A stretch of 63,910 bases of DNA, the filler included, from Licmophora abbreviata (Eukaryota): NCBI GenBank assembly GCA_900291995.1. It is 10 parts of 10 records of this genome, joined end to end, with 100 filler letters (N's around TTAATTAATTAA, not from the genome) between each part and the next. Parts side by side here need not be neighbours in the genome. Positions count along the whole stretch, not along the records: positions 48,320 to 62,510 come from OLMU01004001.1; 9 more parts are not named here. One strand, 5' to 3'. The notes under the pieces were generated by a model. It worked only from the letters and a program-made list of their open reading frames with translations, ran no database searches and was not told where the DNA came from. The translations under genes were made by a program, and so were the position numbers. Below, one piece after another: positions 141-62,646 of the stretch (the stretch's first letter is position 1; every line of letters starts with the position of its first letter).

Positions 141-955
141 ATGTTTCTTTCCGACTTACTGGAGCCATACTTGAGACTTTCTGGAGGAAGGAATTGTCAG
201 TGTTTCAGTCAGCATGCCGTGATGTCTGATGATGTCACTTCGGCGTTCGATGATGATAATTTCGGGGAAACTGATCCAATTGACTCATTTGATGTCCGAC
301 TTAGCGCTGCTGATGTGTATCATGCGTATTGGGTTACTGCCCTTGCCCTTGTCGTCACCATTCTTGTGACATGCATCTTCTGTGACCCGCAATCTCGCTT
401 TTACCAACAAGGATTGGAAGACTGGATCAACGACGATGATCCTACGACGACGACGAGCAATGCGACCACAAGCGACAGGAAGAAGAAGGCTACACGAAAC
501 CCACCGGAGGCAATTACAGCGTCCCTACATTCGTGGAAGATTTCTAGCGAAGAGGTCGATCGAATGCCGCCTGACGACTGCTCATGCCCGATCTGCCTCA
601 TGGATTTCGGTATGTGTGTTGGAACGTCAGCAGGAAATAAGTTGTTTCTCTACCGGTTCTTTCGTTCGCGTTACTAACGGTTTGATTTCGTCGCCACTCG
701 TCTTTCTCCGCAGAACCGGGGAATACACTTTCACATAGCAAAAATGCCTGTCGACACCGCTTCCATGAAACATGTCTACGAGAATGGATGCACACACACT
801 CTTCCTGCCCTTGCTGTCGACAAGACCTGATACTACCGTCAAGCCCCTCGCAACAACGCGTCGATCCAACTAACGACAACAACTTGAATCTTTTGACGCC
901 ATGGCCACGAAATGTGCCACCGAACGACCCCACCTTTTGTCTGTTCATCTTCTAA
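141..955 (+). CDS. Transmembrane RING-H2 E3 ubiquitin ligase (ATL-like), 2 exons (141-609, 714-955)
   Basis: TM segment (YWVTALALVVTILVTCIFC), then CPICLMDF. GTATGT..CTAAC..CAG intron 610-713. Spliced continuation reads CRHRFHETCLREWMHTHSSCPCCR and ends at TAA 953-955. Confidence 0.85.
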
Positions 956-1333
956 AAAGAGAGACTCATTGTACTAGGAGTACGCGTTGAGACGCACTTG
1001 GGTTTCGCTGGCGCTTGGGAATTCGTACTAGAGATAGTGGCGTGTGCTTGAGAGACTGCCTTATTCCTCAATCCGAGCAACAATAACGATGAGACGCCCA
1101 CAGGTCCATCACAGTAATGTTTGTAGCAACGCAACTCAGTCGACTGAGTCTAGGAGTCGAGTCGACTTTTTTCGGCCTGACCCGCGCGGAATACAAATAA
1201 AATTAGCTTTGTCCACGCAAGCGTAAAAGACATTTCGAATTGAAATTCGAGATGGCGCGATGACGACGACGAGATCGGGAGACAGCAATGCAAAAGAAAA
1301 GATGGCGCAACGCACTAAAGACGTCCATCAAGA

Positions 1334-6041: not shown

Positions 6042-6321
6042 TCTGAACCCCGGCTAGTCAGAAATCTCCAGAGTGCTGTGAATAGTCAGTAAATCGGAAT
6101 GCCGCATGTACCATCGTGACGAAAGATCGAATTGTGGCCCGTTTTGGATCACATGAAAGTCTTAGTGTTGGGATCGACTGAGTCGATTGAATCAAAAATC
6201 GGATGATTGACTCATTCGACTCGAGCTCTGCGCGCATCTGCTGGCAAAAGAGCGCGCAGCAGCATTGTTCGATTTCTTGTTGTTGAGCGATTTGATTTAG
6301 CGCACAAGACCTCGCCGCACC

Positions 6322-7214
6322 ATGACGGCCGCGGCTCTTTCGTGGGGCTGTGCCTTGCTGGCGTTTGCTCCATTCCTTTCGTTGCTCTTCGTTGTGTGTT
6401 ATCACAAGGCCCAGCTTGTCATCGTCGTGACGACGTCCGCATTTGCCTTTTTGCTGAGTTCGCTGGGAGCATCTCTGATTTGGTTCTTGTTCGACTTGGT
6501 CGGCTTGGGCGACCACGCCCTTCTCATTCTCCTTCCAGGAATTCTCGCTCAGTTCGTTGGAAGATGCGCGTTTACCAGAATCTATCACACGGTCGAGAAA
6601 GTCATCGAAATCAGCATTCAGCGTCACGAACAACACACGGACGAATTTCAAGAAACCATGAAGCTGCGACTCGAATTGAACGACTGGGCCTGCGGACTGG
6701 CGGCAGGCACGGCTTTGGTGGTATGCATGCCGTCTTACTCTATGGAACTCTCTTGGCGAGCGAATCCAACAATTTAGGAGTCTTGTATCAACCGAGCTGT
6801 CCCGGAATGCCCAGTCTGGTGGTCAGTGCCTTGAACACCTTCCTCTTTAGCATTCTCGACGTCGTCTGGATGCTACTGACATTCTATGGCCTTCGACAAC
6901 GTGAACTGAACTTACCAGAAGATTCTTCCACCTACCATCATCGACGGTGGGGTGCACTCTTGCAAAGATCCAAAAAGGGTGGAACAACTGCCTTGAAGGT
7001 GGTCTTACTCTCACACGCCGCCGCTTCCTTCACGACGACTGCCAACGGTTGGGACAGTGGCTGTGTCGTGTCACTGCCCGTGTTGACATGTATTACAATC
7101 GGGACGGTCGCTGCCTTTTGGGGAGGTGTGTCCAAAGTCTATCTTCCCATCAATCAGCGAGAACGCAGTGCGGCAGGGGAGAACCGCGAGACGCATGCAT
7201 TTCATGGTGAGTGA
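6322..7214 (+). CDS. APH1: Gamma-secretase subunit APH-1 (frameshift at ~6711, probably a missing G)
   Basis: N-terminus MTAAALSWGCALLAFAPFLSLL matches APH-1. Adding one G restores AAGTGFGGMHAV (GxxxG) and joins the second frame (LYQPSCP...SALNTFLFSILDVVWM...SHAAAS). Confidence 0.8.
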
Positions 7215-10406: not shown

Positions 10407-10506
10407 NNNNNNNNNNNNNNNNNNNNNNNNNNNNNNNNNNNNNNNNNNNNTTAATTAATTAANNNNNNNNNNNNNNNNNNNNNNNNNNNNNNNNNNNNNN
10501 NNNNNN
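10407..10506. other. Assembly gap linker N44-TTAATTAATTAA-N44. Identical linkers at 19557-19656, 27395-27494, 31791-31890, 38829-38928, 41495-41594, 43887-43986, 48220-48319 and 62511-62610
   Basis: Exactly 100 nt each, with a palindromic all-frame stop linker in the middle. Confidence 0.97.
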
Positions 10507-19556: not shown

Positions 19557-19656
19557 NNNNNNNNNNNNNNNNNNNNNNNNNNNNNNNNNNNNNNNNNNNN
19601 TTAATTAATTAANNNNNNNNNNNNNNNNNNNNNNNNNNNNNNNNNNNNNNNNNNNN

Positions 19657-26133: not shown

Positions 26134-27709
26134 CTAGAGCAGCGTAGCGACGACACTGAGTAGGGCCATCGAACGTGGCAAGGGGCCCGTCGTCGACGAA
26201 GTGAGACCGCTACTGGTTTGGGGAGACAACCCGGTTGAAATCATGGGAGCCGCTGCACAGCAGAGTTCCCCAAAGTTGCGCTGCAATCCAGAGCAAACTA
26301 AAGCGTCGGGTGCCATCGTTCCGACATACTCGGCCTCGCTACAGGAAATTCCGGCATCAGGATCGGCGAGACGCGCGGTGTCAGGGAGTGCTTGTGCGTT
26401 GTTGTCACAGAGACGACAGGCTTGACCGTCTGAAATCGGATTAGTGCATCCACATGCGACGCCAGCTGTAGCTTGAATTGCTGTGCATTGACGGGAGTCT
26501 CCGATGGTTTCGGCCAATACAGCAAAGTCGCCACATGTGCCGCTCGCGTCGAGGCGCTGGAAGAGTCTGGGAGGTGGCATGCCATTTTCACACAGAGTGC
26601 AGGAGGGTGCGTCAAGTACGGGTGCTTCACAATCACACAGGTTCACGCCAATATAAAAGTAGGTCTGGCAACGCTTTTCGTCAGCGAGACCTAGATCGAC
26701 TTCTTCGTCAAGTCGGCCGCAAGTGACTTCTTCGCCGTTGACAATATCGATGACTTCGTTAGGATAAGAAACCCGAGACCCATCCGGGCAAACTGCCGTA
26801 CACGGCGGTGGCTCTCCAAAGACTTCGACACAACCGCATTCCGAAGCTGCGTAGGTCTTGATCACGTCGCAGTCATAGTCGGAGGTAATTGTACTAGCAA
26901 TCTCTTCCACGTCTGCACACGTGAGGCCGTTCGAAAGAACAGACTTGGGAAAGAGAGAAGGTCGGCCGTCGTTACAGAGTGAGCATGATGGCTTGGGGAT
27001 CGGTGGGCAGTCACAGATGGAAGAGAGAGTCGCAATCTCGTTGCACTGTTCTTGGTCCGAAATCGTGGTGGCGATGAACTCCAGCTCCTCGCAAGTGACA
27101 TCGAGTCCAGGGATCTCGTACGAACGCGAAAGAGGCGAGCGTCCGTCCGGACACAGCGTGCAGGACGGCGTGACATCTGGGCACTGACACCAAGGAGCGT
27201 AGACTCGAAAGTCGGGACATTCCTCGGCGTCGGCCCCCAACGCGATGGATTGAGCGACACCACACGTCACTTCGGCCAATGGAATGAATATATCTTCGAT
27301 GACGTTCGATCCGTCCGGACAGACGGTGCAGGACGCGTTGGCGACTGCGCCCAAGCTCGGAGGGTCTTGAGGAGGAGCGACGACACAGCCGCAGNNNNNN
27401 NNNNNNNNNNNNNNNNNNNNNNNNNNNNNNNNNNNNNNTTAATTAATTAANNNNNNNNNNNNNNNNNNNNNNNNNNNNNNNNNNNNNNNNNNNNTGCAGA
27501 AAAGCAGTCACTTGGAGATCCAGGCAGGCATCGGAAGTGGAGGCGATTCCGCTGGAAGCCATCACGAGGTGAGAACAGCTTGTTCCATTTGAAAGCGTCA
27601 TGGATGCGTTCCAGGCGGAGCCGTCGACGCACGGAAAGCATACGTCAGGCTCGAGCGCGAACGAGCAAGCAGCGAGGAGCGTGGTGATGGAGAGAGAGAC
27701 AAGCATCAT
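26134..27709 (-). CDS. Secreted or cell-surface Cys-rich repeat protein (about 7 CxxCx[DN]G units), interrupted by a gap; possible GPI anchor
   Basis: Signal peptide MMLVSLSITTLLAACSFA; repeated CxLCxDG..TC..C..CxC units on both sides of the gap; Ser/Thr linker and hydrophobic C-terminus. Confidence 0.8.
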
Positions 27710-31671: not shown

Positions 31672-33607
31672 TTATCTTTGAACCTGGTTCTCAGAATCAC
31701 CCGGAGCGTTGCCGTGCCACTTTCCTCCTAGAACAGACGGGTCCGTACGTAGCACTTCAAAGATGGTCAACAGCTGCATGAGATCTTTCTNNNNNNNNNN
31801 NNNNNNNNNNNNNNNNNNNNNNNNNNNNNNNNNNTTAATTAATTAANNNNNNNNNNNNNNNNNNNNNNNNNNNNNNNNNNNNNNNNNNNNAACAGCTGCA
31901 TAAGATCTTTCTTGGCTCGTTGCGCACTGTGCTTCCTTCGTTCCTGTTGCTCCTTCGCACTGTCTATCTTTTCGGCTGTCGCCGCAATGCCAAAAGGGAA
32001 CAGGCCCGACAATGGGTCTCGAATGCCCAGTGCCTGTGGATACACGCGGACAAGCTTCCGTACACCCTTGTCCCAATGTGTCTGCGACTCCAACGCCAAG
32101 CATAATGGTGTCTTTCCATATGAGTCTATTTTCTTTGCGGCCTCTGGGTTTTCTCGAAGTAGCAAATCGATGCCAAGTGCTTTCCGCGACATTACGACTG
32201 CATTGTCAATTTTCGAATTCCGGGCACCCCAGGTGCACACCCAGTGCAAGGGGTAACGGCTTTCCATAGTCATATCACATGGCTCTCGCACCTTGGTTGG
32301 AAACGCTCTCATTGTAAGCATAAGGATAGGCAACGGGCAGCCCTCAACGAGTGCGGCTGCATGAACTGCGAAGAACGGTGCACCTGGCCTTTTAACGTGA
32401 AGCGTCCCGTACTTCAACAAGAGCACGGTCCACTGCCAGAGCCACCAAGTACGAAATGGGCTGGAAGAGACGCCTTGGTGTCATTGCCGCCGGGCTTGCT
32501 TCGACGCTGGTCGTCCTGCTGGGAAATTGCATCTTGAATCATCGCCCCATTGCATTTGTACAGGAGCTCGAGTGGACTCGTTGACAGACCGCCTTGAAAC
32601 TCGACACTCGTACTACTCGTTAGCTCGACAAGGTGTTGTCGGGCCATGCGGGGGTCGTGCTCCAGAAGCACACGTAGAACGGACACAGGTGTCCGGCCGG
32701 GGTGCGCCGGTCCTGCCGGCGAACAGGGTTCGAGCGCCCCACGAGTCAGACTGTAGCTCACAACATGGATGCCCACTGGGCTCAAACCGGAATTGGTGAG
32801 AATCGACAGACTCTTCTTTCGATTTTTCGTCAGAATACGTGCAACCTTTTCCGACTCGATAAACATATCTTGAGGTGGCTCTTCCTGTTTGCCCAGAATG
32901 AGTTGGTCAATGTATTTCTTCCTCAGTTGTTCGCCATCCTCACCGACGTTCGTTTGCTGCCGAAGTCTCTGCTGTTTAACTTGTTCAGCGATTTCTTCGT
33001 CCACGTTTCCAATGACATCGGTTTTCAAAGAAAACTCACTACCCGAGGATACAGTTTCAAGCTTGCCCGGATAGGGAGGGACTAGACTAGCATATGCCAA
33101 CGGTGTGAAACCCACTTTCTTACAACGCCGATATGCCGAATTGGGATAGGCTTTGATCAATGCTCGAATGACGTCAGTTGGTGCTGGGGCATCGTAGTCA
33201 CCCCACAGAGAGCGTACTGACTGCGTTTTGAGATCTGCTGATACAACCGAGCACCTCGAATAGCTCGCTCGAGAGATGACAGCGAGGTGAAGGGCTGTAG
33301 TTCCGTCGGTATGCACATATTTCGCTTCTCTTGACGCCACCTTTGCCCTCAAGGCAACTCGTGACCATTGACGACCCAGAGCGAGTCGGTACAATTCTGG
33401 AACTCTTCGCTCTCGAAGTAACTGAAAAGAGGAGGCAATGGAAACATGTTTTCCCTCGACCACTGATGGTGTAGTGGTCTTCGAATTCGTCGCTCGCTTT
33501 CTGGTCAAGCCGACTCGCTCTGGCGGCAGGCTTTGAAACTTTGCTTCTCCTCTCTGAGAGAGTGGTTCCGTCGGTTCCTCGTTCATGATTCTTACGTCGG
33601 GCTGCAT
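31672..33607 (-). CDS. Ankyrin-repeat-like protein, tandem paralog of 30276-31397; frameshift at ~32445-32480; spans a false gap
   Basis: GTTALHLA, GFTPLAYA, WWLWQWTVLLL, YPLHWVC, GKTPLCLA, GLFPFGIAA. The C-terminus LLTIFEVLRTDPSVL..QR* lies on the other side of the gap. Confidence 0.7.
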
Positions 33608-38750: not shown

Positions 38751-39295
38751 GGTGATGGAAAGTGGAAAGTGCCATGATGTGGCCCGAAATCGGATGAGAA
38801 GACCTCGCCGATGACGAGCGCGAGGAGCNNNNNNNNNNNNNNNNNNNNNNNNNNNNNNNNNNNNNNNNNNNNTTAATTAATTAANNNNNNNNNNNNNNNN
38901 NNNNNNNNNNNNNNNNNNNNNNNNNNNNTACACCTCAAACACATAACAACCGGTGGTGTGTTAGCAATTCAAGACACAAGATCGACTAGAGAGTGATCTG
39001 CACGGATTGGAGGAGATCTTGGGTGAGCTGGTTAATCCGTGAACTGGCCCCCTTACACGGCAATCAAGAGATGGACATGATCGATTGCGCACCCAGCGCG
39101 TGATAGCATACGTAGTGTAACTCTTTTTCGTGGTATTAATCTAGTTTCTGGAACCGACAAGTCAATGATGTATGTCCGTCAAGCGGTATGACACAGAATC
39201 GAGTCGGTTATCATCGGCATAGCAAAGTAGACACGGCATTGCTGTCGTGCGTGCAGTATATCCAAAAGGACGGTTCGACTTTCCTCACATGTCGC

Positions 39296-39744: not shown

Positions 39745-39958
39745 GGTGAATCGAATCGACACAAGCACTCTACGAGTATTCCCTGACGACACACACAGCA
39801 CGATATTCAATATGATACAAAATGACGCCGCGCTCTCACACAGCCTTGATGTCAGTGCAGCGCGCACCTCCATTCGCGCGGTCCGTCGCGATCTTCGAAC
39901 TCTCGAAACTTTCTTGACATTTCCCATTTCGATCGACTTGACTCACACACCATGAACC

Positions 39959-41286
39959 ATGACTGTCGACACCATCCTCTCCGTCTCGTCGTCCCACCGC
40001 TGGCCTGCCGAGTGGGAACCTCATCAGGCTTGTCTACTGCTTTATCCGCATAGTCCATATACGTTTCGATCGAACTGTGTACCCGCACAAGGAGAAGTAT
40101 TGAACGTCGCCAGAACAATTGTGAAGGCATCCGAGTCGAGTGACAGCTGTAGCAGCGAAGATGTCCTTCTGTTTTGTAAGGATACTGAGCAAGCCGTGAA
40201 ACTAAAAGAGGAACTAATGACAGAAGAAGAAGAAGAAACGTCTGGTGGCCGTATTCATGTCCTGGTGTGTCCAAGTGACGACACGTGGGCGCGAGACACG
40301 GGGCCGACGTTTCTGTTGAATACGATGCATTCTTCCAACAGCAGCAGCAGCAGTGAATCGCTCACGTCAGTAGTGGGACTGGACTGGGATTTCAACGCTT
40401 ACGGTGGGCCAGAGGAGGGATGCTACTGGCCTTGTGAACTGGATAAGGCTGTTTGCAAAACCATGTGTCGAGAATTGGCGTTGCATTACAACGACGAAAT
40501 GTATGCGTCACTACTACCTACACGCAAAATTCCGATTGTTTTGGAGGGCGGCTCCATTCATACGGATGGACAAGGGACCGTATTGACCACGGAGGAGTGT
40601 TTGCTCCATGCGAATCGAAATCCGCATCTTTCCAAGTTACAGATTGAAGCAATACTTTTGGAGTCGCTGGGGTGTAACAAAGTGATTTGGCTTCCTTTCG
40701 GACTTGCGGCAGACAAGGACACCAACGGACATGTCGACAACATGGCGTGCTTTGTGCGGCCCACCGAAATTGTTCTAAGCTGGACTGATGATGAAGAAAA
40801 GGACCCCGATAATTATCAACGCTGTCGGTCGGCAATGGATGTGCTGACGAAGGAGGTTGACGCGCAAGGACGAGAGTTGGTCGTTCACAAGCTCTACCTT
40901 CCGCCTCCCATGGTACGAGTGCGAATAGTGCTGTCCATGATGTCATTCCTTTGCAGATTTTGACCTTCTGTTTCTATTCGCAATCTTCACTCATCATCAT
41001 ACTTCAGTACTATACAGCACAAGATGTGGAAACGCTGACACCCTTTGATGGCATCGTCGATCGGAGCGTAGGACAACGACTCGCTGCCTCGTATGTCAAC
41101 TTTTATATTGCAAATACGTGCGTTGTGGTACCGCAGTTTGGCGAGGAGCCATATGATACAGGAGCTATTCGTGTACTACAACCCCTCTTTCTGAGCAGAC
41201 GAGTAGTAGGGGTTCCGTCACGAGAGATTCTATTGGGCGGAGGCAACGTTCATTGTATTACCCAGCAACTGCCGAAATTACAGTAG
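39959..41286 (+). CDS. aguA: Agmatine deiminase (agmatine iminohydrolase); intron 40913-41007
   Basis: WPAEWEPH, DDTWARDTGP, DWDFNAYGG, LEGGSIHTDGQGT, TNGHVDN, ASYVNFY, GGGNVHCITQQ with the catalytic Cys. Confidence 0.93.
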
Positions 41287-41494: not shown

Positions 41495-41594
41495 NNNNNN
41501 NNNNNNNNNNNNNNNNNNNNNNNNNNNNNNNNNNNNNNTTAATTAATTAANNNNNNNNNNNNNNNNNNNNNNNNNNNNNNNNNNNNNNNNNNNN

Positions 41595-43235: not shown

Positions 43236-45120
43236 CTAAGGTGTTGCCAACTCCGCTGTTTCGTTTATGGCTCCCTCCCCGATAGAGAGCGTTTCCACTA
43301 CGCAGTCGTCTTCAAAGAAACACTTGTGCAATTGCAAGACTGCATCTTCCAGCTGATCGTCGCTCAGAATGAACGAAATGTTGACCTTGGAAGCACCTTG
43401 ACTCATCATCTCCACCTTCATTCCTTGCGACGAAAATACTCGAAAGACCGTCGCTAGCACCTCGGAACTACGCTCCACATCTGTAATGAGTGTCAAGATG
43501 GAACGTTTCTGCTTGAGCGTCACTTCGGCATACGGCGACATTTCCTCCATAAGAGCGCGAATGTCTCCCATGTCTTGCTTCTTGTCCAACGTCAACGATA
43601 CTGATACTTCCGAGCTAGCCAGAACGTCTACCGACAGCTTGTGCTTTTCAAAGTCTCCAAAGACATGTGACAAAAACCCATACGCCCCCAACATCTGTGT
43701 CGAGTGGATATCCATCAACTTGATGTCTCGTTTGAATGTAATGGCCGTCACCTGTGTGACGATACATGGACGAGAGACGAATAAGATGAGCGACCGACAA
43801 TTTCAAACACACGACGCAGACATCATACTACTTGGCATTACGTACCAATCTACCTTCCATAGGATTGTTTTCAATAACCGTACCAANNNNNNNNNNNNNN
43901 NNNNNNNNNNNNNNNNNNNNNNNNNNNNNNTTAATTAATTAANNNNNNNNNNNNNNNNNNNNNNNNNNNNNNNNNNNNNNNNNNNNCCCCAATCGCCGTT
44001 GCGGTCAAGTCACTCCCACCCCGTCCCAAAGTGGTAATCTTTCCATCCGGATCGTGTCCAATGAATCCCGTAACAACTGCGACGACATTTGGATCCAGCT
44101 TTCCAAACGCATTTCGCACCGCCTCTTCATGGTTTGGCAACAACTTGGCGTCCCCAAAGTGTCCATCCGTGTACATTCCAATATCCCACGCATCGAAGGC
44201 TTGTGCCGGCACTCCGATCTGATTCAGACGTGCAGCCATGATCCGGACACTGCAGCGCTCTCCGTACGACACGAGCTGATCGAGCGACTTTGGAGATAGT
44301 TCTTGGATCAAACGAACCCCATTCAGCATGTCTTCGCATTCGTTCAGTAGGTCTTCGACTTCCTTGTTGGTATTGGAGGGAAACTCAAAATTTGTAATGG
44401 TGGCCTTGTGCAATGTACGAATGGCATCGATGCAAACACGGCCCTCTGTTTTGTTCGAGAAGGATGTTATAACAGAACTGACAGTGTAAGTTTCGTGAGT
44501 TTTGGTATCCTCCTCCCGTTCGAGTTCGGTTCACTACGATCACTTTGATACAATATACTCACCCAGCGCGAAGTCTCCGGCACCCAGTAAGCTGTTCGTC
44601 GTCTTGCCCATGGCACTGCAAACGACTGCCCGTGGACGAACGCCCGCAGCGATTTGATCTTTGATGAGCTGTGCAACGTGATCAATTCGACTGTAATCAG
44701 CCAAGGAAGAGCCTCCAAACTTCATGACCACGTCGGTAGTACTCTGCATAAGAGGTAGGATAGTGGAAAAAGTGCCGGAAACTACGGTCAGACAGTGGTG
44801 GTCGTCTCACGGAGGGCATCATATTGTCCTCTACGCACATTCCAACTTACATCTGAATTTCCGTTTCCATTGGTGCGGGAAATGCTCATACCATTGCGGT
44901 AGTCTCCCACGGCATCACCGTCGACGTCGTCGTCGCCAGCGTTGCTCACGGCAGCAGCTGGCAGAATTACGGAACGCGAATTGTAAACTGTAGCATATCT
45001 AGTTGGTCTGGGAGACACAAAAGCTTGTATGAAATGCGCAGCGCAGAGTGATCGTAGATGCAGCAACACTGCTACTCCTTTGAGTCCCAGTCTTTTGCTT
45101 GGAAGCGTCGCCATGGTCAT
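43236..45120 (-). CDS. lysC: Aspartate kinase, plastid-targeted; introns 44744-44850, 44446-44562 and 43752-43845; internal gap
   Basis: Signal peptide then QA-F; VVMKFGGSS, VCSAMGKTT, SYGERCS, TTLGRGGSDLTA; two ACT domains (GFLSHVF..SEVSVSLT, SQGASKVNISF). Confidence 0.92.
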
Positions 45121-46659: not shown

Positions 46660-48174
46660 CTATTCAAACTCCTCGAAAGCAGCAAACGTGGCATCATCCA
46701 TATGTCCTGACATGCGTGACATAGAACTACGGTACGATCTCAACGAGTCTCTTCGGTACGACGACAATCGCGTCGCTTGGCCCGATAAGTCCTCTTTCGT
46801 AAACAACACGGATGCCCTGCGGAAACCGAGTATTGCCGCCATGCCCGTCAGGATCACGATCAGCTCCAATACGAGAATGTTGTGGAGACTCCCGTCCCGG
46901 AAGGCGATGCAATATGTTGTGCTCGGACTCTGACATGTCACTCGATACGAAAGCATATACCCGAGCGCACTCGAAAGTCCATTCTGAAATTCGATGTTGG
47001 CGAAGGCACCCTCCTTCTCGTAAGCAAAGTAATCGACAAAGACGGACTTTAGGGTGCTCTCAAAGGTGGCGCGACCAACACCTTGCAGCGAATACACTAG
47101 CAGCAATCCGCCTAGGCTCCATCGGTCTAGATCCGGTAGAAGAACGAACGGAAGTGCCACACAACTAAAGGCCGATGCACCCACCATCAACACAGCCCCC
47201 TTTCCAAATCTTCTCACGAGGTAATAATGAAACCACAGACTGCAAGCTGCGGCAACAATGGCACAGAGAGCTGCGAAACCCCCTACGTATTTTGAATTGT
47301 CGTCGTGCAGGACAATCCGCACCGCTTGTCCCGATACGAAAGAATTCAGAAAGGCTCCAGAGAATCCAAATGCGGCATTTAGCCCAATCATATACTTCAT
47401 CTTGGAATCGTCTCGTAGCAGTTGCAGCGCAGCTGTCAGTTTGTACCATACCGACTCGTTACCGCGACCGATTGAGGAAGCTGGTGGATAGTTCTTTACA
47501 CACGTCATCATGCCGAGCGTCGACAAGACAGCGATTGCGGCATAAACACCAAAGATACGAGACCATGCCTTGTCACGTTGCGCCAAAATGGAAGACACTA
47601 AGTGCAGAAATGCTTCTTCCGTCAGATAAATGGCTGCAAAGATTCCCGCTAGCAACGATGTAGACGAAGCCCAGTCACAACTCCCACTAAACAAAGAATG
47701 CTCCTCCGCGGCTTGCGCAAAGTATGCCCCTTGCGAAGTCCAAAATACACCCCCTCCAATGCCTCCTATAGTTGCTCCAAGTAGCACAATCCAAGTTCTG
47801 GCACTGGGATCGCTTCCTGCTAGAACGGCCAGAGTAAAGGACAGCACGTACACACAATAGAGCGACATTCCCAAGACGATTCCATTGCGTGCCCCTAGTC
47901 TTTTTACCACGTATGTCGCCCCCACTAGTGCCGACAGTGTATAAGATAAATACAGCACTCCGGATTGCGTTGCTCCGATTGCTCCCAGCCGTGCCGTTGC
48001 AAGCGCCATGCACGCAAGGACGCAGCAAACATTGGTCGAGGCCAAAAAGGCAAAAACCACGAAATTTAGCACGGTCAGACGAGCTCCCAACAAGTTACGG
48101 GGAGCGACTTCCAGCTGGAGTAGACTGGTTGACTCGGTTGCATGCTGCTGATGAGGCTGCGGATTGCTCTTCAT
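46660..48174 (-). CDS. UNC-93-like MFS membrane protein
   Basis: LGAIG..SGVLY, GARNGIVLG..YCVY, GGGVFWTSQGAYF; about 12 hydrophobic segments; N-terminal ESTSLL. Confidence 0.8.
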   Translation of the reverse strand: MKSNPQPHQQHATESTSLLQLEVAPRNLLGARLTVLNFVVFAFLASTNVCCVLACMALATARLGAIGATQSGVLYLSYTLSALVGATYVVKRLGARNGIVLGMSLYCVYVLSFTLAVLAGSDPSARTWIVLLGATIGGIGGGVFWTSQGAYFAQAAEEHSLFSGSCDWASSTSLLAGIFAAIYLTEEAFLHLVSSILAQRDKAWSRIFGVYAAIAVLSTLGMMTCVKNYPPASSIGRGNESVWYKLTAALQLLRDDSKMKYMIGLNAAFGFSGAFLNSFVSGQAVRIVLHDDNSKYVGGFAALCAIVAAACSLWFHYYLVRRFGKGAVLMVGASAFSCVALPFVLLPDLDRWSLGGLLLVYSLQGVGRATFESTLKSVFVDYFAYEKEGAFANIEFQNGLSSALGYMLSYRVTCQSPSTTYCIAFRDGSLHNILVLELIVILTGMAAILGFRRASVLFTKEDLSGQATRLSSYRRDSLRSYRSSMSRMSGHMDDATFAAFEEFE

Positions 48175-48633
48175 GGTAACAAGAGGTGAAGATTACGACA
48201 GAACCATCATCATCGTGATNNNNNNNNNNNNNNNNNNNNNNNNNNNNNNNNNNNNNNNNNNNNTTAATTAATTAANNNNNNNNNNNNNNNNNNNNNNNNN
48301 NNNNNNNNNNNNNNNNNNNCAGAACCATCATCATCGTGATGGCCTCGTCGGCGGCGCGATATGTTTGATTTATGTGTCGAGACACGTGACCCAGTTTTGA
48401 TCCAGTCACATATAGTCACGACTGAAACGCAGGTAAGGTTACTCACTCAGCGCGAGATTTTGTTTGTGATGTTTTGACCATGAGCGAGTGTGATCACACC
48501 GCAGCATCATATAGATTACGATGCGGCGCTGTGTCCGTTTTCGGAGACCAATTGGACGTTGATCAGGAACTATATCGAAGACCTTACTACAGATTGTATT
48601 GATTTAATGTCTCTTCACGAAGAAATTTCCACA

Positions 48634-50125
48634 ATGAGCTACGAACGAGTACCCTCCACGACGCCGCAACAGGAAGCTGATGCTGCTGATCAGTTCCAAG
48701 ACGGTGGAAGTCTCCGGAACATCATCGTTACTACCACAGAGGCGGATTTCAGTCACAGCCTGCGTTGTCAAAGACGCGTTGTTCGAAACTTTATCATAAT
48801 GACAATTTTGTTCAGTGCCAATCACGGGTGTACGGTTACATGTCTGGCACTCGCTACGGCACGATTGGGTTCCATTGGAGCCTGGCAGTCGGGTACCTTG
48901 TATCTCACGTACACGCTTTCCGCCTTGTTGGGTGCGACCTATATCACCAAGACAATCGGAGGACGCAATGCCATGATGGCCGGAATGGGCCTGTACTGTG
49001 CCTATGTGGGATGTTTCTGGTATGCCTCCGCTGCTTCTAACAGTAGGGAGACTGTCGTGATTCTGGGGGCCGCGATCGGAGGAATCGGAGCTGGATTATT
49101 TGGACTGGCCAAGGGGCCTTCTTTACGCAAGCATCACAAGATCATGCTGCGTGTAATCATCAGGGAACCCGCTCCCGACAGAACTCAACTTCATTTTTGG
49201 CTGGCATCTTTGCGTTCATCTACCTTGTGGAAGAAGTCATCTTGCGATCCTTGTCGACTATTACTGGAAACCACAGGTTGGTCTTGGAAAACTATCTTTG
49301 GGCTGTATACTATCATTGCTATCGTATCGACGATCGGTATGCTCTGGGTACGTAACTACCCTTCCTCTGACCAAGAGTTCACTTCATCAGAGTCCCAATT
49401 TGCGAAAGTGACAGCGGCTGGCCTACTGCTGTGGAAGGACCCGAAAAATGAAGCACATGATTGGATTGAATGCCGTGTTTGGATTTGCGGGTGCCTTTGT
49501 GAATTCATATGTCAACGGCCAAGTCGTGCGGGTCGCTTTGAACGACCCAGACTCAAAATATGTGGGAAGTCTCTCTGCATGGCTGGCCGCTGTCGCTGCC
49601 ATAATGAGTCTCGTGTTGGCACGTGTTTCACAACGAGTCGGAAAGGGACCAGTGTTGGTTTCGGGTGCGATCTGCTTTCTACTTGTGGCATTTCTCTTTG
49701 TTCTGCAGCCGAATATCTCGTCGCAATGGGGGTGGGCTAAATTGCTTCTCGTCTATGCTCTTCAAGGTACAGGCCGTGCCACGTTTGAAAGTACGCTCAA
49801 GGCGACCTTTGCCGATTTCTTTGGTTCGTACGAAAAGGAGGGAGCCTTTGCCAATATCATTCTGCAAAATGGGCTTGCGAGTGCGGTTGGATACGTAATG
49901 ACATTTCGACTCCAGTGTTCTGTACCGAGCTCGTATTGTGTAGAGTATCAAGATGGATCTCTTCACAATGTTTTGGTATTCGAAACTGTTGTGATAGTTA
50001 CGGCGCTGGCGGCAATCTTGGGATACTGGCGTGCGTCCACAATACACCAACACGAGCAAGACGCCAGGGCGGAAGACATGGATCTACGGGAGGACGACAG
50101 TGACGAACCAGTAATTTTAACATAA
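48634..50125 (+). pseudogene. UNC-93-like MFS paralog with three frameshifts (~49100, ~49260, ~49445): pseudogene or sequencing error
   Basis: Colinear with 46660-48174 (GRATFESTLKA, YEKEGAFANI, DGSLHN) once three indels are corrected; two of them are in homopolymers. Confidence 0.65.
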
Positions 50126-50192: not shown

Positions 50193-53100
50193 TCAGGAAT
50201 GTGCCCAATGCGGAGTTTCGTCATCAATGTCCCACGGATAATTGACGACTCGGTTCATGCCGCGCGGCCAGCCATCGTGAGACGTAGCTGTTAGCCCAGG
50301 GATCGCCTTTACCAGTCCTCCCGCAAAGTTTTCAGCTCGTTCGCCACCATCGTCTTCTTCGGTGTAGGCGAACAAATATACGCTGATACCGGTCCGGCCA
50401 TCCCATGTCGCGATGGCACTCCCATGCGATGAAAACCCGACCACGACGCATCCATCACCAATAGGCACAACCTGGGCGTCGGAGCTCTGGGCGCTCATGC
50501 CCTCTACTGCCACCAATACAGACTGAACGGCATTCTTGAATAAAGCTGCGGTGAGCCGTGTTTCCGGAATTATCGAAAACTGAATGAGTTCTTGTTCGCC
50601 CATGGGTTGCTGTGACACCCACTGCTGGAGAGGTAGTGTGGAATCATAGTCTTGATGTGAAAATGTCACTGAAGGCTCGAAGTCTGCAACATATGTCATG
50701 AGACCATTCATGATGCGTCGAACTTCCCCGATGAGACCGGTCTTGGTTTCGATCCTCGCAATAACGTCGACGAGATGCGAATAGAAGTGAGCATCTCCCG
50801 ACGAAAACACACCCAGTTCTAAGCCAGTGCCGGTGCCGTTGAAGACGACCTCTGCACGATAGGCTGGGTCAAACTTGACTAAGTCGGCACGGAAGCGGTC
50901 CAACAGTGCTCTGTGCCATGATTCAGACGAATCGAGTGATATCGCCAGAACGGCATGATCTTCCTCGAGTAAGTCCAATCGCAAGCCCTTTCTACTTAGA
51001 ATTTTGTGGATATCTGACCCATGGCAAGCGGCGCCTTTGGGTCGATTACAATGGCGCCGATTTTGCCGTCCGAAGTAACCAGTTCGTCCAGACGCCGGAG
51101 AGTATCGCTTTCGCATTTCAACATGCGCCTCGAGGAGTCTGCTGAGCTCTCCGATCCAGCAACAACGCTCGGGCACGTCCATACAGGGAATACTTTCTGG
51201 CCCAAGCCATTCGTTTCGAACGTCTTCGCAAGCAAGTCCAGGCTGCTGCACGAGCTCGACTGTTCGCCACACAAGGCGACAACTCTAGTATTTTCTTCTT
51301 TTATCATCAGGCAGCTTTCCTCAAGAAGGGAATCCACCTCACTCTGTTCCGGGAGAGCGCCTCGGGCACTGTCGGGAAGAGGTTCGCACACGTCGGTAAT
51401 CTGGGGCCCGACCGCCACGTTGCCCTTCTTCGGCGAGGCTCCGAACATGCCACCCGTGATAATGCGATACGAGGATGGAGACGTGCTACCAACGGCCGTG
51501 ACAAGGTGTTTCTTTGCGACCTCTTGCTTCTCGATGCTACTCCAAAGCAAAAGGTCAAAAGCACAGTAGTCGCCACCGGGCCATGTTCGAGCAACTGCGA
51601 ACCCTTCGCGAAGGACAAAGACTAGCTCGTCGACTGCCCCTTCTTTAGAAGGGGACTGCATGACTGACAATTCGTCTAGGCCTGCATTTTTCAAGGCCGC
51701 GCTCAAGCTATTCTTCAGGGAAGACGGTGATGCGTTCTTGAGATATTCTGCGTCCTCGGCCTCGAGGATCATGAGAACACCAAAGCCCCCAATCGCTGCT
51801 TCCCCCAAGCTTTTCAGCTCTACATCAGGTGCCCTACAGAGCTTGTGTGAATGAGAGCTATTGCTCACATAGTTATACCAGATACCGAATTGATTCTCCT
51901 CTTCATTTAGTGGTGGAAGATACAGCGTGTCGATTCCATGGTCCTTTGGCGTCTTTCGGAGCAAATCCACAGTGTTGCTACCCACGGTGATACCTTGCTT
52001 ACAAAGCAAAGGAACATCAATATAATACAGATCGACGGCGTAATCGGTAAACGCATTCGCCGTTCCCCATTCCCAGTCCTCGTTCCTTGCAATGACTCCA
52101 TCCTTCTTGAGAAGGAGAAGCGCTGCGGCCATGATGTTGAGTTCCTCGGTCACTTTTAGTATCTCGGCGACTTCAGTCTGCAAGTCGAGAAGCACGATAT
52201 CGAAGGTACCGTAATACTCTTGCGGGAGCAAAAGAAGACTTTTGGAGGCATCGCCATACCACCACTGCAATCGCTCGTCGTCCCAGTGGGGCTGTGTACC
52301 AAAGTTCTTGAAGCTGCTCCTGACGACATTGTGATCGAGTTCCAGCCCCACTGCAAGCTCCAGGGAAGGGTATTTGAGAATTTCGTGAACTATCATATTG
52401 TCGCCTCCTCCGATAAAGGCGATCCGTTTGACTTCGTCGACGAAACGCGCGGGGTAGTGAACAAATACCTCGTGGTAGTGCGGACGGAAGCTCGAGCAGG
52501 CTTGGAGATGGCCATTCAAGGCGAGGCATGTATCATCATGCTCTTTGCTGTACTTGTAATCTATCGTTTGAAACTGAGACTCGGTACCGTCCCATTCCTC
52601 GTATTCCCAGTGACTGTACAATGTAGAACAGACCTCCTCGGTATAGTGTCCAATGCCAGGCTCTTCCAAGTCATCGTAAAGGCGAGACTCGTCGTCCGCA
52701 CAGGATACATCGCCATCGGCGGAAATGACACATTCCTCCTCTTCATGTCCACTCTCCTGTATCGCATATTCCAGTGCTGTCAAAAGAGCATCGTAGAACT
52801 CCATACAAAGGGATCTCTCGTGGTCCGAGGCCATCCCCGCGGCACTGGATGTAACATAATCGCCGAGATCTCGAAGTCGCCGCAGATGTCCTCGGAAGAA
52901 GTTCATCTCAAACTCATCCGGCTCCTCCGAAAGCCATGTTAGTTTCAGTCGATCTGTCCCAGGCTGCTCATCCAGTTCCATCACAATATCTTCATAGGGA
53001 TCTTCCGTCGGAAACAACCAACGCCTTGGATACTGCTCCACAAATCCAAAGTCCCTGACCATATGCGGCAGTCCATACGAGAGGGAAAACTCCTTGCAGT

Positions 53101-53854
53101 CGACACATTCATTGTAGGATATATACATTTCTTCTCCAGCTTTGACATCTCGAGAAGCAAAGGCGGTAACGTCCTTTCCTTCGTGTATACTGTTGCTGTA
53201 CACGTTCGTCCAAGGCGCATTCCGGTGGTTGAACATGTCATAGAGGGGAACCATTGTATCATCCCAACTGCGTCGAACGACCAACAAGTAGATTTCTTCC
53301 CCTTCCTCACTACTACCGCTCCCTCCACAGTCCTCTTCAAAGGAACTTTCGGTTGCACGCGTCGGATACAATTCTCTCCCGATAATGGTAGTCAACAGTT
53401 CCTTCCCCTCGTCCGACCACGAAGCAGGTAAATGTCCCTTGTATGTATCTCCATCCAAGAGATAGTGTACATAGGGAGCAAATTCCGACTCCTCCCCGAG
53501 CTCCCGTTGATGCATGAGAGTGCGCGTCAAGTCGCAGATGTCGTCCGAGTCTGGTCCTGCCTTTAGGAGACAATCTTGAGGAAGAACCATGAGTGTTTCC
53601 TTTTCGGGAATGTCTTGGGAGGCAAAGACGCCAATGGGAGAGTCATCGTCGGAATTGTCGATACGTCGGAGTTCTAATTTGGGATTGAAGTAGCCTCCTC
53701 TAGAACGGAGCCAATCAATCTGAGCTTCTCCTTGATTCAATTTGGTTTCTGAATTCATGGGAGCCACCGCGGCATCCGTCGTCCCCGGCATCCAGCGAGC
53801 GTTGAACGCCGCTGTCAAAGTAAGCAATATTGACAGAAGAGTTCGTTGCGTCAT
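50193..53854 (-). CDS. Multidomain fusion: signal peptide, SET methyltransferase, spermidine-synthase-type aminopropyltransferase and two degenerate AdoMetDC-like domains; frameshift at ~51010
   Basis: SET: GVFASQDI, PLYDMFNH, AGEEMYISYN. Aminopropyltransferase: YHEVFVH, FIGGGDNMIVHEILKYP, ELD, GDA, FDIVLLD. AdoMetDC-like: LREGFAVARTWP..CAFDL and GSAIATWDG. One added base joins MGQI to xHKILS. Confidence 0.8.
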
Positions 53855-54131
53855 GGTCAAGGTATGAAACAACAGCAAAATCTATGGAATGCGTCTTGTG
53901 AGCAATGCACACAAGATCTTTCAATAGAAACAAGAATGCGTTGTGTGCTAGCCGTTGAGAAACAACAAGCGCGCGTAACCTCACTTCACACTTCCGGGTT
54001 TGCGATACCATCTGACCGGCGGGCGTTCGGACCGGAAAGCGTGATGTGACATAGCGTGCCGACTAGACCGACCATGACGAGGATCAGACGTGCCGGTCTC
54101 TCGCCGTCGTGCTTCCATTCACCATAGTATC

Positions 54132-55529
54132 ATGACCATGCCGCTCAAGGAGCAAAAGGAGGCGTTCGTGACTGGCCATACAGGAACGACCGTCTTGGAA
54201 ATTCTCGTCGTATGTGTCTCGTCCCCCGTAGGTCTGTTTTTGTGGACGCAAACCATGGGTCGATGGAGACGAACGTCGGCGCACATTAGTGCTTCTCTGC
54301 TAGAAGCCACTGCTGTCTTGCTACCCATGGCACTCTGTCAGACGAGCTACTTGTATCCTTGGGGTGTGGGACTGCTCGTACTGGAAGCCTCTGTCGCTGC
54401 TCTGACTCTTTTTCTCCACGACACGCCGTCCTCTCCCTCGACGCCATCCAACGCCACTCCCACTACCAGTAGGAGTCTTGCGATACTAACGTTCACGTGT
54501 TATCGCTCCACGATACTCTTTCTGACCTTTGTTGCCATTCTGGCCGTCGACTTTCGCATATTCCCTCGACGATTCGCCAAGACGGAAGTCTATGGATATG
54601 GATGGATGGATCTAGGAGCTGCCAGTTTTGTTGTCGCAGCGGGACTGTCGTCGTCGAGGGCGAGGGGTAAGACAAGGATGAAGAAGAAGAAGACTAGTAC
54701 TATACTTTTCGCAATGGGAAAACGAGTACTACCATTGTTGTTGCTGGGAGGAATTCGATTGGCTACCAACAAGGGACTGGAGTATCAGGAGCATGTGTCC
54801 GAATATGGCGTCCACTGGAACTTTTTCTTTACTTTGGCAGTGGTGACACCTCTCGCGTCACTCGTGGGATCCAGGAGACGGCGAGGGATATGGACACCTA
54901 TGGCTCTACTGATACTCTATCAATATGCCTTGTCGACACAAGGATTGCAAACCTACGTGGAGGAGGGAACGCGACAGCATCGAGAACCCAGCGCCGGCGT
55001 GTTTTGTCAGGTGTTTGCTGCCAATCGAGAGGGCATTCTGGGATGCATTGGATACCTTGCTCTCTATCTCAGTAGCGAATGTATAGGACGACTCTGTCTG
55101 TGGGAGGATAAAAGCGTCTCGACGTCAGTGAATCTATGGTTGGCAGCAGTACTGCTGTGGGGTGCCCATTGGTTCTTGACGAGTGTCTTGGCGATTCAAG
55201 TCTCACGGCGCACCACAAATGCCTCGTTTTGCGCTTGGGCATTGGCACACAATGTCACCATGTTGGCACTGATTCAAATGGTCACGTCGACGATGACTCA
55301 TACTTTCACTCCTCCGATATTGCATGCCATCAATCAACACGGACTAATTGTCTTTGTCGTGGCCAATCTACTGACGGGTTTGGTCAATATCTCGATGAAT
55401 ACGCTGGCTGCGAGCGACGGCATGGCGATGCTTATCCTGTTCCTCTACCTTGCTGCAGTTTCAACTATCTCGCTTTCGTTGGAGCTGCTGCTTCCCACAC
55501 GCCACTATGATGGCGCAAAGAAGGACTGA
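54132..55529 (+). CDS. PIGW: GPI inositol acyltransferase PIG-W/GWT1
   Basis: KEAFVTGHTGT, ILAVDFRIFPRRFAKTE, MDLG, YQEHVSEYGVHWNFFFTL, ANREGI, VSRR, ANLLTGLVN. Confidence 0.93.
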   Translation: MTMPLKEQKEAFVTGHTGTTVLEILVVCVSSPVGLFLWTQTMGRWRRTSAHISASLLEATAVLLPMALCQTSYLYPWGVGLLVLEASVAALTLFLHDTPSSPSTPSNATPTTSRSLAILTFTCYRSTILFLTFVAILAVDFRIFPRRFAKTEVYGYGWMDLGAASFVVAAGLSSSRARGKTRMKKKKTSTILFAMGKRVLPLLLLGGIRLATNKGLEYQEHVSEYGVHWNFFFTLAVVTPLASLVGSRRRRGIWTPMALLILYQYALSTQGLQTYVEEGTRQHREPSAGVFCQVFAANREGILGCIGYLALYLSSECIGRLCLWEDKSVSTSVNLWLAAVLLWGAHWFLTSVLAIQVSRRTTNASFCAWALAHNVTMLALIQMVTSTMTHTFTPPILHAINQHGLIVFVVANLLTGLVNISMNTLAASDGMAMLILFLYLAAVSTISLSLELLLPTRHYDGAKKD

Positions 55530-60955: not shown

Positions 60956-61234
60956 TCATCCCATTGCGGACGCTGCAACAGCACCACGCGGCGTCGTCAT
61001 GGTCGGCGGCGCATGTTCGATGCTGTAAGCTCTGCTACAGTTCGCTGTACGGTGGTTCAATCCTTAGCGCGATCACGCGCGCTTGTTTGGAATTGTGTTC
61101 TGTTTCAATTTCGCGCCGTTTTCCGACACTTTTTAACAATTGGAGACGCAACATTGGCCATGATGATGTCGTGATGAGAGTACATGAACACTATCCATGT
61201 CAGCGGAAGTCTGGCGCTACTGCGCTGCTGTAGG

Positions 61235-62491
61235 ATGAGGATAGTCCGTCGATATTACGTCCTACTAGCGGCGGTACTCTTGCTGTCCGTCTATCTCGCC
61301 GTTCGACTGCCTTCCATCCAGACAAGCACCTCTGTCATTCTTTTTGTCCCTCGTGATGGCAACGCGGATGATGAAGACGGCCGTCCACAAATCACAATCA
61401 GAAAACCAACGCTCACTCATGCTGGTGTCTCTGATCAATTTCCATATGTCGACGACCTAGACAACACAACGGCATGGCCAAATCGATACTGCAATTTGAA
61501 CCAGACCGAGTGGACGTCTTCTTCTTGGAAACGTCGAGCTCCATACTTCATGCTCATGGGAGCAAAAAAGAGTGGCACTACTTCCCTCACGAGATATTTG
61601 GAACGACATTCTCTCGTGTTACCGGCACGCACCAAGGAACTCTTGTTTTTCTTGAGACGCAATTTGGACAATCGTCGCACGGAATTCGTAGATGCAGATG
61701 GACGTGTCAAGGTACAGGAAGTCCGAAGAGCTCTGTATTACGAAGATCGAGGCGGAAGTCTGACGCGGCCGCCCAAGTTCGACTACAACTTTACACTCTT
61801 GCAAGAGCATCCCAAGTGGATTTCCTTTGATGCGTCACCGGGTGTACACTTGTACAGTGGCATTCATTTGCGACATGTACTGTGCACGTGTCCGTGGATC
61901 AAGATATTGCTGATCGTTCGTGAACCCGTCCATCGACTCTGGTCGCATTACAACTTTCTCCGCACCTACAAATGGGCGGAAGGCAGCGAAATGATGAGTT
62001 CGTTTGAGGCATTTGTAGATCACGACATGCGCAAGTTGGAAGCAGCCGGTGTATTGCAGTTTCCAAAGAATAGTTCGTTTGCTGACTCGCAGGAAGAGTA
62101 TGAAGCGTGGTTGCGGCATGTCCAAGACCCGGCTACCGGAGACGCTCCTGTAACGCGGGGATTGTATGCCGTGCCTATCGGGCACTGGTTTCGCGTGTTC
62201 CGAGCTATGGGAAGAGACCCGACAAAGGATATTTTGGTAGTGCGATATGATGATGTGCACAAGAAAACTATTTCTACTGTGAATCGAATCTATCGATGGT
62301 TGGGACTTCCTGATGAGATGATTAATCCGGCTTTAAAGGCGGTCATGGTGTCGAACTATGAAGGTCGCTCCCTGAAGCCAGAAACAGAGAGAAAGTTGCA
62401 AGAGTTCTACAAGCCCTATGTGACGAGGCTGTACGAGATTCTTGGAGATGACTGGGGTCGATGGGAGCAGAGTTATCTAGACGACGCATAA
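61235..62491 (+). CDS. Golgi-type sulfotransferase (heparan sulfate 3-O/N-sulfotransferase-like fold)
   Basis: N-terminal TM anchor, GAKKSGTTSL (5'-PSB), KELLFF, DASP, REPVHRLWSHY (3'-PB), RGLYA, LQEFYKPY. Confidence 0.85.
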   Translation: MRIVRRYYVLLAAVLLLSVYLAVRLPSIQTSTSVILFVPRDGNADDEDGRPQITIRKPTLTHAGVSDQFPYVDDLDNTTAWPNRYCNLNQTEWTSSSWKRRAPYFMLMGAKKSGTTSLTRYLERHSLVLPARTKELLFFLRRNLDNRRTEFVDADGRVKVQEVRRALYYEDRGGSLTRPPKFDYNFTLLQEHPKWISFDASPGVHLYSGIHLRHVLCTCPWIKILLIVREPVHRLWSHYNFLRTYKWAEGSEMMSSFEAFVDHDMRKLEAAGVLQFPKNSSFADSQEEYEAWLRHVQDPATGDAPVTRGLYAVPIGHWFRVFRAMGRDPTKDILVVRYDDVHKKTISTVNRIYRWLGLPDEMINPALKAVMVSNYEGRSLKPETERKLQEFYKPYVTRLYEILGDDWGRWEQSYLDDA

Positions 62492-62646
62492 GAACTAATT
62501 TGAGTGGGAGNNNNNNNNNNNNNNNNNNNNNNNNNNNNNNNNNNNNNNNNNNNNTTAATTAATTAANNNNNNNNNNNNNNNNNNNNNNNNNNNNNNNNNN
62601 NNNNNNNNNNCATGGAAGCATGCGCGAAGATTCTTCTGCAGCATCC

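Follow-up and report, generated by a model that had tools for sequence, protein, structure and literature searches.

A diatom fusion of a SET methyltransferase and an aminopropyltransferase with non-catalytic AdoMetDC-like domains, a candidate for amine modification in the secretory pathway

How diatoms synthesize their long-chain polyamines, and how the lysines of silaffins come to be methylated and polyamine-modified, is a long-standing open question of biomineralization, for which a family of multidomain fusion proteins is the main candidate. A gene raising this question is found in a stretch of 63,910 nt from the diatom Licmophora abbreviata (assembly GCA_900291995.1; the whole stretch is termed the window in the following). 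Based on the sequence alone, an original prediction had read it as a fusion of SET, aminopropyltransferase, and S-adenosylmethionine decarboxylase-like (AdoMetDC-like) domains and as a candidate polyamine machine. Does the locus encode a single protein, which of its domains are competent for catalysis, and on which substrates would they act? Our analysis describes a diatom fusion of a SET methyltransferase, an aminopropyltransferase, and non-catalytic AdoMetDC-like domains, for which we infer a mechanism of aminopropylation and methylation of amines in the secretory pathway, with an estimated probability of about 0.6. New in this work are a refined domain map, family-wide evidence that neither AdoMetDC-like domain is catalytic, and the position of a frameshift.

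The gene is present in the window as two overlapping open reading frames (ORFs), A and B, whose coordinates are collected together with those of all domains in Table 1. A protein search with ORF A yielded 89 relatives, the best of which are 50-53% identical and 1,168-1,237 aa long. Six full-length homologues (BLASTP) are collinear with ORF A up to residues 948-952 and with ORF B from residues 82-89 onward. At the junction, frame A reads ...MGQI followed by a stop and frame B reads IHKILS..., and the homologues read MGQI, one Leu or Val, and then HK. This junction reading in combination with the homologue alignments shows that one base is missing at 51009-51013, in line with the initial placement of the frameshift at ~51010. 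The corrected protein has a length of 948 + 1 + 272 = ~1,221 aa, matching both the ~1,220 aa proposed earlier and the size of the collinear homologues. From 80 metagenome loci fetched, 58 match both sides of the junction and all 58 keep both sides in one frame. An intron at this position was ruled out, because no residues are skipped in the collinear homologues; the local GT..AG pair would span 24-27 nt, and genuine introns in the window are GT..AG introns of ~100 nt. Programmed -1 frameshifting was likewise ruled out by visual inspection, with no slippery heptamer at the site. Sequence comparison thus confirmed that the two minus-strand frames would represent one protein of ~1,221 aa.

For structural comparison, P0003, the intact homologue nearest to the window protein (53% identity in BLASTP, 55% in the alignment), was folded with AlphaFold2 in place of the broken sequence (pLDDT 90.9, pTM 0.87) and its model was searched against 48,161 chains, independently of Foldseek. 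In addition, the last 401 residues of a second intact relative, L010 (~41% identical), were folded (pLDDT 88.9). Profile searches were based on a family alignment (A1) of 66 rows.

The protein begins with a hydrophobic stretch, which had been interpreted as a signal peptide. This assignment passed a crude hydrophobicity test (9-aa window, Kyte-Doolittle score of at least 2.0, upstream of the SET start), as do 37 of 46 family proteins starting with Met, the window protein included. In most homologues the SET module begins ~5-20 residues after this stretch. Plastid targeting via an Ala-Phe cleavage motif was considered and ruled out, with the SET module of most homologues being too near the hydrophobic stretch to leave room for a transit peptide.

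The SET domain claimed in the original prediction was recovered by Pfam with 37.7 bits against a cut-off of 22.4 (E 3e-9, residues 75-248). Searching PDB with the family profile retrieved SETD6 (7.3e-11), SETD3 (5e-8), and the Rubisco large subunit methyltransferase (LSMT; 1e-6), and the P0003 model aligned with the same three enzymes: SETD3 6mbj_A (Z 20.8, 294 residues aligned, model 3-333), SETD6 3qxy_A (Z 20.4, 290 aligned), and Rubisco LSMT 1mlv_A (Z 18.3, 292 aligned). The NH and Tyr motifs of the window protein, described as intact before, align with those of SETD3, at a single-sequence E-value of 0.14. Within the family, the His is conserved in 51/56, the Asn in 56/56, and Tyr247, which we take to be the catalytic Tyr, in 45/57 members. 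Judged by these motifs, the SET module looks active. With SETD6, SETD3, and LSMT it has both the SET fold and the helical C-lobe in common (290-294 residues aligned, Z 18-21). In contrast to these enzymes, to which its identity is 14-18%, the diatom protein has polyamine-type domains fused to its SET module and a probable signal peptide. Membership in this class of protein-modifying enzymes leans toward protein lysines over free polyamines as substrates.

The aminopropyltransferase (APT) domain matches Pfam Spermine_synth (PF01564; 57.6 bits against a cut-off of 22.9, E 1.5e-15, residues 459-598). PDB spermidine synthases were matched by the window protein itself (E 1.9e-10) and by the family profile (2.5e-15). 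The P0003 model superimposes on spermidine synthase 2e5w_A with Z 23.4 (rmsd 3.0, 244 aligned), and Foldseek agreed on both the synthase (E 1.7e-10) and SETD3. In the alignment with PDB spermidine synthases, YHE, GGGD, the Glu following strand 2, Gly-Asp, and the D-S-S-D-P motif's first Asp are retained, with GGGD and the catalytic-position Asp aligned to those of the P. falciparum enzyme. Fold, GGGD motif, and Asp at the catalytic position are borne out as initially described. The GGGD Asp favors decarboxylated S-adenosylmethionine (SAM) over SAM. Conservation of these residues is close to complete in the family, with 64/64 for the GGGD Asp, 64/65 for Glu505, 65/65 for Asp535, and 64/65 for Asp557. 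On this basis, the APT domain looks active.

Fold, GGGD, ribose-binding Glu, adenine-binding Asp, and catalytic-position Asp are common to the diatom domain and spermidine synthases (2e5w, 1uir, 2pwp). Unlike in these enzymes, the diatom APT is embedded in a probably secreted 1,221-aa fusion, and its D-S-S-D-P motif has lost the second Asp and the Pro (Thr560/Glu561 in the window protein), at a position that varies across the family. This replacement concerns the acceptor and leaves the assignment to the fold family unaffected. In spermidine synthases the second Asp binds the far amine of putrescine. The altered pocket suggests an acceptor other than putrescine, i.e., a silaffin-type lysine side chain or the growing end of a polyamine.

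In respect to the AdoMetDC-like part, the original domain mapping held less firmly at the level of Pfam: SET and Spermine_synth exceed their cut-offs, but AdoMet_dc reaches 13.8 bits (residues 706-791), below its cut-off of 25, and the Pfam scan of ORF B returned zero matches. A precomputed PF02675 match exists for 27 of the 89 homologues. The whole-family profile matched prokaryotic AdoMetDC in PDB at 8.5e-4, and a profile of the first AdoMetDC-like domain matched the enzymes of A. aeolicus and T. maritima at E 4.8e-4 to 6.5e-4, setting their Glu-Ser opposite Glu-Gly. A single-sequence search of this domain against PDB gave nothing relevant; the family profile alone matched. The folds themselves were confirmed on the homologue models. 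Residues 655-786 of the P0003 model align with A. aeolicus AdoMetDC 2iii_A at Z 15.7, and T. maritima AdoMetDC 1vr7_A follows with Z 15.3 (rmsd 2.3). The last domain of the L010 model matches the N-domain of spermine synthase 3c6k_A (Z 10.8) as well as AdoMetDC 2iii_A (Z 10.7) and 1vr7_A (Z 10.4), and Foldseek found 1vr7_B for it (E 2.3e-4, target TM-score 0.64). Both domains thereby share the fold of prokaryotic class 1 AdoMetDC. Profile comparison of the second with the first domain by hhalign gave a weak match (E 4.8e-4, probability 32%). Human AdoMetDC 1msv_A aligns with P0003 at Z 13.8 over 225 residues spread across model positions 653..1157, i.e., across both AdoMetDC-like domains. In the model, these two domains, far apart in sequence, pack like the two halves of a eukaryotic AdoMetDC.

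Unlike active AdoMetDC, the diatom domains have a Gly in place of the Ser that yields the pyruvoyl group, in 65/65 family rows in the first domain and in 60/65 in the second. The latter contains a Ser-Ser-His, which was considered as a processing site and ruled out, the profile alignment setting a Gly at the Ser position. Since this Ser is replaced in both domains, no pyruvoyl group is expected to be formed and the protein should be unable to make its own decarboxylated SAM. Each domain has an AdoMetDC-like fold, yet neither is predicted to be a decarboxylase. As a consequence, decarboxylated SAM would have to be provided in trans by a separate active decarboxylase, a prediction added by this analysis. 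The notion of a polyamine machine hence stands with regard to its domain reading and its diatom-borne family, but not as a self-sufficient machine. Known dead relatives of AdoMetDC are the N-terminal domain of human spermine synthase (3c6k) and the T. brucei prozyme (5tvf), the former placing a dead AdoMetDC-like domain beside an aminopropyltransferase-type fold, as is found here.

Between the two AdoMetDC-like domains lies a further globular domain that the earlier list of SET, APT, and AdoMetDC-like parts had missed, and inside which the frameshift falls. Structure searches with the L010 model assigned it a Rossmann-like topology at moderate fold similarity, with overall Z 8-10 (4dzr Z 10.1, 3gjy Z 9.7, 9q41 Z 9.1), and Foldseek matched it to T. 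maritima spermidine synthase (E 8.8e-5). It is devoid of a Gly-rich cofactor loop; four of its Cys are conserved and a single Asp is invariant. No sequence homology to PDB chains was found for this domain, and its origin as a duplicate of the APT domain had no sequence support (hhalign probability 0.2%).

With two of five globular domains non-catalytic and a third without a cofactor motif, one might consider the protein to be a secreted or organellar protein methyltransferase unrelated to silica, in which the APT-like and AdoMetDC-like parts are structural only. The link to silica rests on taxon restriction and on co-expression of related families in another species. Against this stands the near-invariance of the APT cofactor and catalytic residues among 64-65 members, unexpected for a purely structural domain, and we consider such a role very improbable.

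As far as sequence comparison reaches, both the gene and its family are of diatom origin, because all hits with a name (11 of 89) are from diatoms (Odontella, Seminavis, Nitzschia, Epithemia, Cylindrotheca, Thalassiosira, Skeletonema, and four names beginning with Amphi- or Coret(h)-) and the neighboring GWT1 gene on the same contig is closest to a diatom GWT1 (51% identical to that of Fragilaria crotonensis, with 52% being the best value to any protein). The window gene combines SET, APT, and dead AdoMetDC-like domains in one diatom polypeptide. This architecture is presumably that of the diatom SET/APT/dead-AdoMetDC fusions that Michael (FEBS Lett 2011) put forward on in silico grounds. Those fusions are reported to have the same three kinds of domains, diatom origin, a dead AdoMetDC, and an N-terminal secretory signal, and to have been given the same proposed role, i.e., methylation and aminopropylation of polyamines or silaffin lysines. 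For rearranged fusions whose AdoMetDC is catalytically dead, Michael is also said to have suggested dimethylation of silaffins and transfer of polyamines to these proteins as possible activities. In contrast to those fusions, the window copy is frameshifted and derives from a diatom without a close sequenced relative (best identity 53%). By description, there is also a likeness to diatom-restricted SET proteins proposed to modify cell-wall proteins and polyamines. The window gene is an added member of a family that has been known in silico since 2011 and is still uncharacterized.

[quoted passage not shown] A December 2025 paper from Michael's laboratory counts 32 fusion proteins in Nitzschia inconspicua and states that they still need study. 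A preprint on Seminavis reports 24 diatom-specific SET genes and eight AMDC-APT genes that peak at cytokinesis, when cell-wall genes peak as well. These sources bear out the original statement, in which fusions of this kind figured as proposed synthases of long-chain polyamines with limited proof.

How might the parts of this protein work together? It would enter the secretory pathway via its N-terminal signal peptide. The APT domain would then transfer aminopropyl groups from decarboxylated SAM onto an amine, either a silaffin-type lysine or a growing polyamine end, and the SET module would methylate such amines with SAM. By analogy to the dead AdoMetDC-like domain of spermine synthase, the dead AdoMetDC pair and the degenerate Rossmann-like domain may form a scaffold or a ligand-binding module, with the decarboxylated SAM being supplied by a separate active enzyme. 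Silaffin-type lysines would be the favored acceptors, because the SET module belongs to a class with protein substrates and the Asp that anchors putrescine is missing. The function assigned originally, elongation and methylation of polyamines or modification of silaffin-like lysines, is retained as a proposal, with the SET class shifting its weight toward protein lysines. Sequences and models establish the domains, their motifs, the conservation throughout the family, and the origin from a diatom, while substrates, compartment, and the connection to silica are inferred.

An enzyme acting on free polyamines, which it would elongate and N-methylate as soluble long-chain polyamines, is an alternative and was the first option of the original prediction. 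It would be compatible with an APT domain intact in fold and cofactor motifs, and it is what the three reviews named above propose for such fusions. However, the match of the SET module to enzymes modifying protein side chains extends over their entire architecture, with 290-294 residues aligned and the C-lobe included, and the acceptor-site Asp of spermidine synthases is lost. Furthermore, we know of no SET enzyme acting on a free polyamine, and altogether we regard this alternative as rather unlikely. An extension of the favored model, modification of silaffin-type lysines, would see the family as lumenal enzymes that assemble methylated chains of oligo-propylamine on the silaffin lysines themselves. 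In this case, the SET module would dock the protein substrate and methylate, the APT domain would extend, and the dead AdoMetDC halves together with the Rossmann-like domain would hold decarboxylated SAM or the growing chain, making the reaction processive. This is a speculative scenario, which we judge to be unlikely in this specific form.

Several points weigh against aminopropylation and methylation of secretory amines by this protein. The proposed mechanism needs both SAM and decarboxylated SAM, and to our knowledge neither is known to occur in the lumen of the ER (endoplasmic reticulum), the Golgi, or the silica deposition vesicle. The N-terminal ER signal peptide is probable, with the crude hydrophobicity test described above as its sole support. 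Because SETD3, a member of the same SET class, is a histidine methyltransferase, the target atom of the SET module is uncertain. All structural evidence comes from models of homologues (53% and ~41% identical) and not from the window protein. Our literature search, in whose range most subscription journals did not fall, yielded neither a biochemical nor a knockout study on such fusions, and no biochemical, genetic, or expression datum for the window gene or any family member. Finally, the gene is broken as assembled, and although read contigs from four sequencing runs (17 pieces) contain no indels anywhere, none of them spans 50917-51083.

This raises the question of whether the frameshift is real. 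If it were real and fixed, the locus would be a pseudogene or would yield no more than a shortened product of 952 aa, without the last AdoMetDC-like domain and with only half of the Rossmann-like one. The deletion is contained in the window sequence and absent from 58/58 related loci. Moreover, the adjacent UNC-93-like gene is frame-broken too, at an A-run near 49445 and by eye twice more, and its intact paralogue next door would be compatible with local gene decay. On the other hand, ORF B is open for 272 codons past the shift, the ratio of downstream to upstream identity is 0.87 in the window gene and thus equals that of 28 intact homologue pairs (0.86 +/- 0.06), and none of the invariant residues in the C-terminal domains has been lost. 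Given that the frame past the shift is open and conserved to the same degree as in intact relatives, an old pseudogene is disfavored. A further hint is provided by the Aph-1 gene (gamma-secretase subunit; 6207-7211, plus strand), which is divided near 6700 between two overlapping frames that leave no space for an intron, and looks like another one-base deletion; with a presumably single-copy gene being broken in a similar manner, indel errors in the assembly are indicated. A fixed lesion is therefore conceivable but on balance doubtful, and the missing base is more likely due to an error of the assembly, to an allele, or to a lesion that is very recent than to an old pseudogene. The best DNA run carried 0.28 of the words and no RNA run was listed. 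When metagenome contigs were scanned for an exact pattern spanning the site, with 3-6 bases permitted in the middle, 0 matches were obtained.

For experimental work, the domain map with its protein-class SET module, an APT domain whose cofactor site is intact and whose acceptor site is changed, paired dead AdoMetDC-like halves, and an extra Rossmann-like domain can guide the design of constructs. As it is frameshifted in the assembly, the window copy itself is not the best entry point.

Table 1. Positions of the fusion gene, its reading frames, and its domains in the window.
Feature	Position	Strand	Description	Basis
Whole gene	50193..53854	-	single exon, two frames offset by one missing base, ~1,221 codons plus stop at 50193-50195	ORFs and collinearity with homologues
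ORF A	50996..53881	-	Met at 53854, stop at 50996-50998, 952 aa	
ORF B	50193..51284	-	in another frame than ORF A and overlapping it, stop at 50193-50195, 363 aa	
Site of one-base deletion relative to all homologues	51009..51013	-		sequence, alignments, 58/58 loci in one frame
Start codon and hydrophobic N-terminus	53795..53854	-	h-region residues 5-17, probable ER signal peptide	translation, hydrophobicity test
SET module with helical C-lobe	52775..53737	-	SETD3/SETD6/Rubisco LSMT class, residues ~40-360	Pfam SET 75-248
APT domain	51935..52645	-	spermidine-synthase fold, residues ~404-640	GGGD 482-485, catalytic-position Asp557
AdoMetDC-like domain 1	51395..51817	-	non-catalytic	Glu750-Gly751 at the processing Glu-Ser position
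Rossmann-like middle domain	50706..51358	-	class I methyltransferase/aminopropyltransferase-like topology, split by the frameshift	limits mapped from homologues
AdoMetDC-like domain 2	50196..50642	-	non-catalytic, C-terminal	homologue model (L010 C-terminus)

Among the related metagenome loci (L001-L080), many are contigs of 3.6-4.7 kb that are filled nearly end to end by an intronless ORF. One of them, L044, has two in-frame stops within AdoMetDC-like domain 1 (L044:591-947) and was excluded from alignment A4. Three homologues (P0011, P0072, P0080) have precomputed Pfam domains of the Agenet/Tudor type (PF05641, PF18359, PF18115) besides or in place of SET. A PABS cluster, mostly from Bacillariophyta and with an atlas score of 0.82, was noted as a lead only.

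The fusion gene lies on the contig occupying 48320-62510. It is flanked head to head, ~270 nt from its start, by the GWT1 gene (54078-55529, plus strand), coding for a glycosylphosphatidylinositol (GPI) inositol acyltransferase. Tail to tail, a gene for an UNC-93-like transporter of the major facilitator superfamily (48484-50125, plus strand) reaches to within 68 nt of the fusion gene's stop; it has a frame change at a run of five A near 49445, and comparison with its paralogue by eye points to two more probable frame changes near 49095 and 49270. The paralogue (46663-48192, minus strand) is intact. A gene with a sulfotransferase domain (61178-62488, plus strand) is found on the same contig as the fusion gene. 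An agmatine deiminase gene (39956-41283, plus strand; PAD_porph E 1e-72) with one GT..AG intron of ~100 nt is located on another contig. Agmatine deiminase belongs to the putrescine pathway.

The window consists of ten joined contigs, and gene neighborhood across their borders is therefore not genomic evidence. The borders are marked by nine identical 100-nt spacers (44 N, TTAATTAATTAA, 44 N) at 10407-10506, 19557-19656, 27395-27494, 31791-31890, 38829-38928, 41495-41594, 43887-43986, 48220-48319, and 62511-62610. At the spacers starting at 31791 and 48220, both flanks have nearly the same sequence, as if the joined contigs overlapped.

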